Source of the DNA: Ascidiella aspersa
Lineage: Eukaryota
DNA: 64,000 bases
Direction of reading: 5' to 3'
NCBI GenBank assembly: GCA_963924565.1
Contig: OZ004612.1
Location: forward strand, 6,944,001-7,008,000
Shown here one piece after another: positions 855 to 4,014 of the stretch. Positions within the stretch are counted from its first letter, which is position 1. Each line of letters starts with the position of its first letter. Made by a program: the position numbers and the translations under genes. The notes under the pieces were generated by a model, which was not told where the DNA came from, ran no database searches, and saw only the letters and a list, made by a program, of their open reading frames with translations.

Positions 855-3800
855 CGCCCACCACTTATGAGCACACCAGGAGAAATGGTAGCCGACCCAA
901 CTGCGTTTCCATTGACACAAGCTTCACAAAATACAAAGTTGCCGGAGTCGGTGGACTACAGAGTTAAGGGTTGGGTTACATCTATGAAGAATCAGGGCCA
1001 GTGTGGAAGCTGCTACGCCTTCGCCGCTGTAAGTCAAATGTTTAATTAAATTTAGTGGGAAAAGTAAAATGATTTTAAAGCATAATCGTTGGAAGTTTTA
1101 GTAAGACGTAGTAAGAACACCAAAGCCCATACAGAAATAGGTATGTATCGTTTTTAACATTTCGAATATCTCTTTATTTATTTTCAAAGAAGTATGAAAA
1201 GACTGAAAACAAATTGTTCAAAATAATACTAAAATGTGCCATTTCGTCGAAGCTCGAGTCCGGCTTCACTTTTCAGCCTGTATTTTACTCATCTATATAA
1301 ATTAGATGGGTATTCAGCAACCCACTTATATGAGTGCAATCTCTAGATGGGTCAATGAAGTTAAATTCTTAGAGTTTAATTAAGAAAAAATGCTTTCGCG
1401 CCTTCTTCATGTATTTAGACTTTATTTAAGTTGCACATCTGTTGGACGGAAAACAGCAGGTTTCGTAAGTCTTCTTGTTTTATGACGTCATTTTATGACG
1501 TTATCTCTAAAAATCCCACGCTGACCTTGGTCCACGCGCATCAGAAAAATTGTAAGGGTTTGCTTTAAAATAAGTTTAAGAACCACTGACCTATAAGCCC
1601 AAAAAGTAAGACATTTAAGCCAGTTTATCGTTTCAGGTTGGTGTTATGGAGGCACAAATTAAAAGGACTGACGACAGACTTGTGAGCCTGAGCACCCAGC
1701 AACTTGTTGATTGCTCTGACAACTATGGTTGTGGGGGAGGCCACCCGACCAAATGCTTTGAATACGCTAAAAACGGCTTAGCTTGTGATGATTACTACCC
1801 CTACACGGGTAAGGTAGGTCTCGGCGTGGTGAGCGCTATAATGTCACATAAAATTTAAACTTTTAACTACCATAAAGAAGTTTTTTTAACTAAATATAGA
1901 ATTGAAAAAAAAAATTTTTTAGATGTACGCAATTTTTTTATTAGATATGAGCACTTTTCAGTACATGTAAGCACTTACAGAATTTAAAAATAAGCTAAAC
2001 AAATAAAACTTAAACTTATTAAAAACATATATTTAAGTAAAAAAAAAATATTTAAACCAACCAATATGTAAGCACTTACTAAATTAAAAAATTAAAAAAA
2101 AAAACTTTTTTAATGAAAAACGTCATTATAAATTTATACCAGATATAAATTCTGACTAAATTAAAAATTTTAAGAAAACATTATTTTTTTAGAAAGATGA
2201 TGGCCAAATCAAGGAGAAGGCGGTTAAAGTGATAAATTGGTGGTTGGCCAGTGGTGAAGATTTGTTAAAGACGACAGTTGCTACGTTTGGCCCTGTAGCT
2301 GTTACACTCCATATTCCAGATCATTTTAAACATCTACATAACGATACAGGTTGCAAATAACTTTTTCCCTCAATTTCCGTAGACTTAGTTAGAAATATTT
2401 AGAATATCAAACCCCATACAGAATAAGGTATTCTTTTGAAAGTTTGTAATATCTATCTCTTTATTTATTATTAACATTGAAGGAATAAGGAAATAGTCAA
2501 AATGTTCACAAAATACGTCTTACTACATACTCCAACCATTATGCTCCATGCCTTAGTGGTTCATAAATTTAACAAATCCGAAAAGATCAATACAAGTTCG
2601 TGTACAAACGTCTGAACCGAGATAATGTCGACCAACCCGACCTTTGAGGCTTTTATGATATTTATTATATTATCAAACAATATGCTAACCCTGATCATGC
2701 AAAAACTGCAGATATATTCGACTCACAAGATCCAGGTACAGGCTGGCATGCTGTTCTGGTTGTTGGATATGGAACAAAAAAAGGTGTCGATTACTGGATC
2801 ATTAAGAACAGGTGAGGCTACCTAAAACAACAGAAGAATGAGCGTTTTCTATCGAGGCCTTCAATCCTGCTACAGTTGCATCGTAAAAAATAAAAAAGTT
2901 AAAATAGAAGACTAAAGATGTTTAATCGCAGGAACCGTGAATCTCATTACATACTTGACTTAAGAAATCTTACTATCTTGACCGCAGCCACTACGCTTGA
3001 CATTCTTACTTCGTCACACCTTATACATATGGATAAATGAATATCACTTGTTTTTTTACTCCCTATAAAACCTTTGTTCAGCTATGATTTATGAGAGATG
3101 TTTTACATAAACAATGTTGTAAAATACGCTGTTCAATAAAGTGGGAACACACAATACGACCTAAAAGCAACAATACCTGAAGCAGAAAAAATTATAATAC
3201 CACAGTATTAAGACCAATGACATAATAAAGCCAAATACGAAGTTATAAAGCGGAATAAGATCTAAATCGTCTGAAAAGACATAAAAATTTGGAATAGGTT
3301 CTAAATTGATTGTAATAAGGCCTCAATGGTTAAAATAACGCCTGGAACTACACGGAGGGGGAATATGACGATCAGGGGCCGTTTGTCAGGCGTCGCCGTT
3401 TTGATGTCGAAGTTTGGGCGCCCCAGTTTGAACGGCGCCGTTAGGGCACTGGTGTTTCGGTACTGATATTTTTTACCCTGTTTGGTGTGTAATGCGTTGG
3501 GTTACACATGGGTTACGGTAAAGATTATTAGGGGAGATAGTGATGTAGTTAGGGGTGGGGCTTAGGAGGCCTGATTTGGGCCATTATATAAGGTGTTATT
3601 CCGAAAGGTTTAGGACTTATTTCGATTTAGACGTTATTACGACTATTGGCTATAGTAGTCCTATTTTGGTTTCATTTCTACCTTTGTTTTATTACGACGT
3701 TGATGCTGTTATTTCGGTCTCAAGGCTGCAATCCTATTCATGCGATTAAATTATTCTTTTTATTTTAAAAGCAGTTTATAACGATCTAGAATTATTTAAA

Positions 3801-4014
3801 TATGATACAGCAAACATCTGGTCAAACGTAATGTACTCCCTGTATTAATAAGTATTTTTATGTTCACAGTTGGGGAACTGGTTGGGGAGGTTGTGGCTAC
3901 GCACTGTTGAAAAGAGGAGTTAACCTTTATCAGATTGGAGACAATTGGAGCTATACTCTAGTGAAGGCCCTAAAACTACCGCCGAAAAAATCAGGAACAT
4001 GTAGTATACTGTAA
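855..4014 (+). CDS. Papain-family (C1A) cathepsin L-like cysteine protease with C-terminal CaaX box; 5 exons visible, 5' end possibly incomplete
   Basis: Exons 855-1028, 1637-1813, 2193-2349, 2712-2811 and 3870-4014 have GT-AG boundaries and compatible phases (753 nt). Motifs: [20 protein letters not shown] (Gln19, Cys25), [32 protein letters not shown] (His159), YWIIKNSWGTGWG (Asn175). Ends ...[13 protein letters not shown]. No signal peptide or I29 propeptide exon was seen in 1-854. Intron 3 has weak splice sites (GTTGCA donor; AAAAACTGCAG acceptor). Confidence 0.9.
3290..3740. repeat. Interspersed repeat in cathepsin intron 4 (inverted copy at ~11200-11640)
   Basis: GTTGATGCTGTTATTTCGGTCT matches AGACCGAAATAAGAACAACATCAA (11212-11235) in reverse; AGTCCTATTTTG matches CAAAATAGGACT. 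Confidence 0.6.

Follow-up and report, generated by a model that had tools for sequence, protein, structure and literature searches.

Bleomycin hydrolase (family C1B) and the calpains (family C2) are papain-fold proteases of the cytosol that have no signal peptide, no I29 propeptide and none of the cysteine pairs typical of cathepsins. Cathepsin L-like enzymes of family C1A without a classical leader have been reported from Artemia embryos and from Trichomonas; to our knowledge, neither a CaaX tail nor the family-wide loss of a disulfide has been described for them. In mammals, nucleo-cytosolic isoforms of cathepsins L and V, which lack an ER import signal and would stay cytosolic, are products of an ordinary gene, made from alternative starts or as transcript variants, according to PMC8972055. 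The same source judges alternative start codons unlikely to give rise in vivo to the nucleo-cytosolic cathepsins of mammals, describes recombinant lysosomal proteases at pH 7.2 as inactive or altered in their preference, and presents the making, folding and activation of cathepsin L in the mammalian cytosol as disputed.

The gene analysed here resembles those isoforms in that its predicted product, a cathepsin L, has no ER import signal, but differs from them in belonging to a whole family of genes that is leaderless and carries fixed changes. Unlike bleomycin hydrolase and the calpains, this family is a recent offshoot of cathepsin L. It shares with that subfamily (PF00112 and PF08246) the catalytic Gln, Cys, His and Asn and the I29 propeptide, and departs from it in the absence of a signal peptide and of the Cys153-Cys200 pair, in the replacement of the GNFD Asp by Val and of the ERFNIN Arg and Asn by Lys and Thr, and in the CaaX end of four members. 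As judged from its sequence, the gene encodes a C1A enzyme of cathepsin L ancestry that lacks two defining features of the lysosomal enzyme, the signal peptide and the complete set of three disulfides. Because PMC8972055 doubts alternative starts and notes inactivity or shifted preference at pH 7.2, a leaderless family constitutes a natural and useful test of cytosolic cathepsin L, showing which changes accompanied the move: one lost disulfide, the Trp26-Tyr/Ala71-Cys pair and an altered propeptide switch.

Structure of the protease gene

The window, that is, the whole stretch of 64,000 nucleotides analysed (G000:C6:6944001-7008000 of a 308.6-Mb genome), holds five predicted exons that, spliced at GT-AG sites, join into a single open frame ending in CSIL and a stop codon (Table 1). 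The genome is probably that of a sea squirt, in line with one match to the cellulose-synthase family above its cut-off (E 4.9e-5). The gene starts upstream of the window, where two further exons complete a predicted model of seven exons and 306 residues, hereafter the C6 gene. The coordinates originally proposed for this protease, 1637..3945, cover part of the gene and omit the exon that encodes Gln19, Cys22 and Cys25. Pfam places PF00112 above cut-off on three exons, and the best structure-sequence matches of the gene are the solved cathepsins L, S, V and K (E about 1e-16). The catalytic residues Gln19, Cys25, His159 and Asn175 (papain numbering throughout), reported as intact in the original prediction, can all be read in the C6 gene and in 23 of 23 family members; together with the Peptidase_C1 domain, they place the predicted protein in peptidase family C1A.

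Table 1. Predicted features of the C6 gene, in window positions unless a genome coordinate is given
Feature	Position (strand)	Content	Pfam match
Exons 1 and 2	G000:C6:6942751-6942781, 6943669-6943805 (outside window)	Exon 1, start codon, 31 nt coding; exon 2, I29 propeptide	Inhibitor_I29 (PF08246), E 1.4e-8
Exon 3 of 7	855..1028 (+)	Pro-rich propeptide end and start of mature enzyme; Gln19, Cys22, Cys25, Tyr26	Peptidase_C1, E 6.6e-9
Gln19	993-995 (+)	Catalytic	
Cys22	1002-1004 (+)		
Cys25	1011-1013 (+)	Catalytic	
Exon 4	1637..1813 (+)	Cys56, Cys63; pocket His67/Pro68/Thr69; family-invariant Cys71; gene-private Cys82	PF00112, E 1.7e-13
Cys56	1712-1714 (+)		
Cys63	1730-1732 (+)		
Cys71	1754-1756 (+)	Extra Cys	
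Cys82	1784-1786 (+)	Extra Cys	
Exon 5	2193..2349 (+)	Position 95, pocket Thr133, NDT sequon at exon end	
Codons 94-95	2199..2204 (+)	Asp-Gly in assembly, Ala-Cys in run X2 contigs	
Position 95	2202-2204 (+)	Gly (GGC) in assembly	
Exon 6	2712..2811 (+)	Asp at 153, Trp158, catalytic His159 and Asn175	PF00112, E 1.4e-7
Position 153	2729-2731 (+)	Asp	
His159	2747-2749 (+)	Catalytic	
Asn175	2807-2809 (+)	Catalytic	
Exon 7	3870..4014 (+)	Loop with Trp177/Trp181, Cys at about 184 found in this gene alone, Tyr at 200, basic tail, stop	
Cys at about 184	3892-3894 (+)	Extra Cys	
Position 200	3928-3930 (+)	Tyr	
CaaX-type end	4000..4011 (+)	CSIL, C-terminus of the C6 gene	

A search of the interval from the propeptide exons to exon 3 found no additional exon. 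The possibility that translation starts at the Met in exon 3, with the inhibitor encoded by a separate gene, was considered and rejected because the codons preceding that Met differ silently among paralogs. Among the 15 of 30 joints listed, none in the run contigs, the kind of which is unrecorded, matched a modelled intron, a result that is uninformative on expression. One exon of 59 aa, folded singly, gave a mean pLDDT of 60. High-copy repeats lie within the introns at 1072-1195, 2436-2559 and 3180-3303 of the window, with contig depths of 40,000-240,000.

A family of related proteases in the same genome

Searching the genome with exon 4 returned 26 matches, 23 of which, at 54-100% identity, are located on C6, on C2 and in three clusters on C7, with the C6 gene alone on C6 and apart from the C7 clusters. 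These matches outline a family of about 23 predicted papain-type proteases. Gene models were built for all 23; the model on C2 has no detected last exon, c6 has no detected propeptide exons, and the propeptide exons of b1, c2 and c9 fail to join in frame under the splice rule used. Fragments b0, b8, c11 and c12, as well as orphan exons on C1 and C4, are left out of every count. In a quick tree, the 23 genes group, on a long stem, into a single clade apart from 25 other C1A rows (SH-aLRT 100). All six intron positions and phases are common to the family and to a canonical, signal-bearing cathepsin L gene on C7 (G000:C7:19400.4-19403.0 kb), which has 71 of 184 residues identical to those of the C6 gene, and we take it as the putative parent type.

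The controls were drawn from 269 database proteins, 84 of which have 295-380 residues, 81 of these with a complete catalytic domain. Unlike these controls, the family has Tyr26, Cys71 and Trp158 (23, 23 and 22 of 23 genes, vs 1, 1 and 0 of 81), and the combination of the three was present in none of 156 proteins screened. Single-exon searches and an exon-4 profile search gave none but generic C1A proteases among the matches listed (the best 150 of 8019 and the best 120 of 2467), and the ESM Atlas only generic Peptidase_C1 clusters. No description of a leaderless or CaaX-bearing cathepsin family was found in the openly accessible literature searched.

The I29 exon (G000:C6:6943669-6943805 and the same exon in 21 paralogs) presents a median silent-site difference of 0.13, vs 0.33-0.65 for the other five exons. 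Its flanking introns have diverged, and its variants fit the tree, which was built from the catalytic domain, poorly (retention 0.22 vs 0.52). The much greater uniformity of this exon across paralogs, compared with the others and next to diverged introns, suggests either that gene conversion limited to the exon has linked C2, C6 and C7 or that selection acts on the nucleotide sequence itself. In paralogs a1, c5, c7, b6 and c1, the beginning of exon 3 is also repeated as short tandem copies just upstream of the real exon.

Predicted absence of a signal peptide and alteration of the propeptide

The first exons of all 22 family genes in which they were modelled encode a short polar stretch and no hydrophobic leader. 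The best 10-residue hydropathy window scores 0.37 in the C6 gene, and no family member exceeds 1.72, compared with at least 2.0 in 72 of 78 controls starting with Met and 3.49 in the C7 cathepsin L of the same genome. In this canonical gene the signal peptide shares an exon with the first propeptide helix, and this exon is homologous to the leaderless exon of the family, which begins just ahead of that helix. An in-frame stop lies 11 codons upstream of the ATG of the C6 gene. No acceptor with a score of at least 10 precedes the ATG within its open stretch in 11 of 22 genes, among them the two paralogs closest to the C6 gene; the acceptors of the other 11 are of mixed phase, with one plausible in-frame acceptor 29 nt before the ATG in the C6 gene (score 12.5). 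Given this lack of acceptors in half of the genes and the disagreement in phase among the rest, an upstream coding exon is unlikely. Comparison of the 3 kb upstream among paralogs, limited to matches of the C6 gene, revealed stop-containing non-coding blocks in common, and none of the matches was a conserved coding exon. At the C2 and c11 loci, a hydrophobic, Met-less open stretch precedes the ATG.

By hydropathy and splice sites, then, the N-terminal signal peptide of lysosomal or secreted cathepsin L is missing, and its absence makes synthesis of the C6 protein in the cytosol likely. This feature, which lies upstream of the window, is a stronger argument for the cytosol than the cysteine losses.

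The I29 propeptide itself is retained, as in the cathepsin L subfamily, with the spacing of the ERFNIN and GNFD motifs kept and their residues changed: Arg is replaced by Lys, and Asn by Thr, Ala or Ser, in 22 of 22 genes. The Asp of GNFD, which we take to be the residue numbered Asp65 in the propeptide study cited below, is Val in all 22, vs Asp in 44 of 52 pattern-matched controls (of 84). The third propeptide helix is also shorter in the family than in cathepsin L. Salt bridges of the propeptide, Asp65 among them, have been tied to acid-triggered activation (PMC4842899).

Variable C-terminal tails

The C-terminal tails of the family differ in length and sequence. Four of 22 genes carry a Cys fourth from the end, in CaaX-type ends reading CSIL (C6 gene), CSLL (a2), CNIL (b2) and CNLI (c3); the remaining 18 lack such an end, with basic or acidic tails among them, and one control protein has Cys in this position. 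Ends of the CSIL type direct geranylgeranylation, aided by a basic tail. The C6 gene combines the Cys with an aliphatic residue at the a2 position of the motif, a terminal Leu and a Lys-rich stretch upstream, and is hence predicted to be prenylated by a GGTase-I-type enzyme. In paralog a3 (G000:C7:29720.7 kb), a stop codon lies four codons ahead of a CSIL end, and an orphan last exon at C1:10885.7 kb (L074) encodes a frameshifted CSIL end.

Conserved, lost and new cysteines

As the original prediction stated, Cys22, Cys25, Cys56 and Cys63 are present in the assembly haplotype of the C6 gene, and positions 95, 153 and 200 are without Cys, being occupied by Gly, Asp and Tyr. Database controls keep these cysteines in 80, 81 and 79 of 81 cases, and both canonical cathepsin L genes of the genome keep all three, so that, by this comparison, the losses are real departures, beyond chance.

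The Gly codon at position 95 is a single base away from TGC, and the loss of Cys95 is allelic. In run X2, A2200C and G2202T give Ala-Cys at codons 94-95 (one contig, depth 89); Gly95 is a property of the assembly haplotype. The X2 contig is probably an allele of the C6 gene and not a paralog, because it presents four differences in 2193-2309, among the 40 of 107 rows listed, vs 24 for a2 and 26 for a3 in the same 117 bases. Relative to X2 and paralog a2, the assembly haplotype has the derived state at codons 94 and 95 and at one more codon of exon 5, the most variable exon in the family. Run X1 has no cover over 2064-2311, the stretch with codon 95, and its exonic differences are silent in three of three cases (among 40 of 107 listed).

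Across the family, Cys153 and Cys200 occur together in 0 of 22 genes, vs 79 of 81 controls; Cys153 is found in five genes and Cys200 in eleven, changing five times on the tree. The bond between them has, on this evidence, gone from the whole family, and is the sole family-wide loss. Cys95 has two changes on the family tree, against a median of seven per column over the 53 columns of exon 5; it is present in 21 of 23 genes, and Cys56 in 23 of 23, so that the 56-95 pair, broken in the assembly haplotype of the C6 gene, is intact in 21 of 23 genes and in X2. Cys22 and Cys63, both present in the C6 gene, are kept in 18 of 23 and were lost jointly, in a single five-gene clade, which is the behaviour of a real disulfide pair. 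That clade (b5, b6, b7, c1 and c2; G000:C7:30077-30114 kb and 30502-30524 kb) also has a rebuilt S1 loop (His22, Lys23) and is alone in having Cys at 153, without Cys200.

The new cysteines of the C6 gene, in TKCF, LACD and GGCG, had been singled out as candidates for substitute bonds, and the comparison gives no sign of such bonds: Cys71 is invariant in the family and tracks Tyr26, and Cys82 and Cys184 are private to the C6 gene. Among 208 pattern-matched database domains, Cys71 accompanies Tyr26 in three of three and is found in none of 204 with Trp26 (Fisher p 2.7e-6), the three proteins being counted singly, with the number of independent cases possibly reduced by kinship among them. This covariation may be general in the papain fold, and the two residues would form a packing pair rather than a bond. 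Database proteins P0029, P0085 and P0140, ordinary C1A enzymes outside the family, also combine Tyr26 and Cys71. Over 1626-2045, the X2 contig has four differences, and none of the three listed falls at the Cys82 codon; with the ancestral Thr codon two bases from TGT and a single difference left over, Cys82 probably predates the loss of Cys95.

The three losses had been read as fitting a reducing cytosolic setting. Part of this reading stands, since the 153-200 bond is missing throughout the family and synthesis in the cytosol is likely; the remainder is weakened by the allelic state of Cys95 and by the retention of Cys22/Cys63 and Cys56/Cys95 as pairs. With one of the three losses allelic, the lost cysteines do not by themselves prove a reducing setting. 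A single bond disappeared together with the signal peptide, but two pairs still behave as constrained disulfides, which is the main unexplained point: either the kept pairs are buried or redox-sensitive within the cytosol, or the enzymes undergo oxidation once released. An N-x-T sequon at the end of exon 5, present in 15 of 23 genes, is ambiguous in this respect because its Asn stays in five genes with a broken sequon and its Thr codon lies within the splice donor.

Selection on the gene and on the substrate pocket

Values of dN/dS for the C6 gene are 0.33 against its closest paralog (CI 0.21-0.50), 0.28-0.53 pairwise against 22 paralogs, with every bootstrap interval below 1, and 0.38 for its own branch (2dlnL 8.3 vs 1). 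These values indicate that the C6 gene is under purifying selection. The view that it is an open frame and not a decaying pseudogene is upheld by this branch value and by a frame open over seven exons, with neither frame breaks nor a dN/dS near 1.

Across paralogs, a comparison of M2a with M1a, run with a custom script with relative branch lengths fixed, gave a 2dlnL of 82 and about 15% of 197 codons at dN/dS 2.6, values that gene conversion and poor alignment of exon 5 can inflate. Positions 61, 67, 68, 69 and 133 have a posterior of at least 0.95, and many further high-scoring sites fall in the exon-5 helix. The S2 pocket is formed by residues 67, 68, 133, 157, 160 and 205 (PMC9712828), and these results indicate that pocket positions diversify across paralogs. 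In the C6 gene the S2 residues are His67, Pro68, Thr133, Gly157, Ala160 and Asn205, the last read from the family alignment, in agreement with the earlier description of its pocket segments as atypical. In the close pair b1 (G000:C7:30035-30040 kb) and c9 (30580-30585 kb), dN/dS is 1.24, with about 41 replacement and 9 silent differences, which would point to relaxed or positive selection; these are two of the genes with propeptide exons that do not join in frame.

Possible function and alternative explanations

The explanation that we favour, with moderate confidence, is that the C6 gene encodes an intact protease derived from cathepsin L, with a propeptide and no signal peptide, which would be made in the cytosol, held at the inner face of a membrane by a lipid anchor on CSIL, and directed at a narrow set of substrates in defence. 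A secreted gene would have been duplicated and its signal peptide then deleted. CSIL would be geranylgeranylated with the help of the basic tail, anchoring the protein at the inner face of the membrane. With Val in place of the GNFD Asp in all 22 genes, activation would proceed through cleavage in the variable linker, presumably by another protease, and not through lysosomal acid. The polar, remodelled S2 pocket would lack the preference of cathepsin L for bulky hydrophobic residues at P2, and the enzyme may act on a small range of protein substrates, with defence of the cell as its most likely role, one suggested by the tandem expansion, the scattered gene fragments and the diversifying pocket residues; the basis for it is this evolutionary pattern. 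The least secure element is the reading of the two L-domain cysteine pairs, apparently kept by selection, as buried or redox-sensitive pairs.

Against this explanation, Cys56, Cys95 and Cys22/Cys63 behave like selected disulfide pairs, which is unexpected in a plainly reducing compartment, 15 of 23 genes carry the sequon, a CaaX end is missing from 18 of 22 members, and the C6 gene does have an in-frame acceptor 29 nt before its ATG. The paired conservation and the missing signal peptide would both be accounted for if zymogens synthesised in the cytosol of, for instance, blood cells acted after cell rupture, vesicle shedding or unconventional secretion, whereupon the kept pairs would oxidise and stabilise the enzymes. 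The majority of members without CaaX would fit such a release, but the CaaX end and basic stretch of the C6 gene point to a cytosol-facing membrane, and an oxidising workplace leaves the family-wide loss of Cys153-Cys200 unexplained; we regard release of this kind as unlikely. The kept L-domain pairs and the sequon would also be expected of a conventional secretory enzyme whose signal-peptide exon lies upstream and escaped recognition, in which the loss of 153-200 is tolerated drift and the CaaX ends are unused. Although the acceptor of the C6 gene and the hydrophobic stretches at C2 and c11 could be read in its favour, such an exon is difficult to reconcile with 11 of 22 genes without a usable acceptor and phase disagreement in the rest, with an upstream comparison (3 kb, C6 gene matches only) that shows no conserved coding exon, and with a parent-type gene whose signal lies in this very homologous exon, and we consider this origin improbable.

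Similarly improbable is that the C6 copy, or its haplotype, is losing function, with Gly95 and the private cysteines as early damage. Its isolation on C6 away from the C7 clusters, the derived codons 94, 95 and one more in exon 5 of the assembly haplotype, and the many fragments in the family would agree with decay, whereas a branch dN/dS below 1, seven exons with splice sites and catalytic residues all intact, and X1 exonic differences silent in three of three cases (among 40 of 107 listed) argue for maintenance, even if a very recent loss would not yet register in dN/dS. The strict form of the original prediction, in which this gene alone shed disulfides to suit a reducing compartment or rebuilt them with its new cysteines, draws on an assembly haplotype with only Cys22-Cys63 complete and on Cys82 being private to the gene without Cys95. 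It is hardly credible given that Cys95 is present in X2, that Cys82 is probably older than the loss of Cys95, and that Cys71 is found in 23 of 23 genes regardless of their other cysteines and goes with Tyr26 in unrelated proteins.

For the family at large, we put forward tentatively, as a possibility, that a sea-squirt lineage turned lysosomal cathepsin L into about 23 fast-evolving cytosolic proteases with one homogenised inhibitory propeptide, varied pockets and tails that sort them (prenyl, polybasic or acidic), which would serve a caspase-like, cell-autonomous defence that includes a prenylated cathepsin. The interest of the locus lies in this family more than in the three cysteines, the proof from which is weaker than first appeared. 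The retained pairs open the redox question to direct test, with the Cys95 and Gly95 alleles as a ready-made comparison.

Other features of the window

Elsewhere in the window, repeated open frames resembling adhesion-GPCR exons were observed at 8113-14317 (-), 28653-34438 (+), 41029-47164 (-) and 57219-62668 (-). They encode GPS-like and membrane-spanning stretches and Thr-rich stalks, and comprise at least four copies, two of which constitute an inverted near-duplicate pair, the family having been named by eye.
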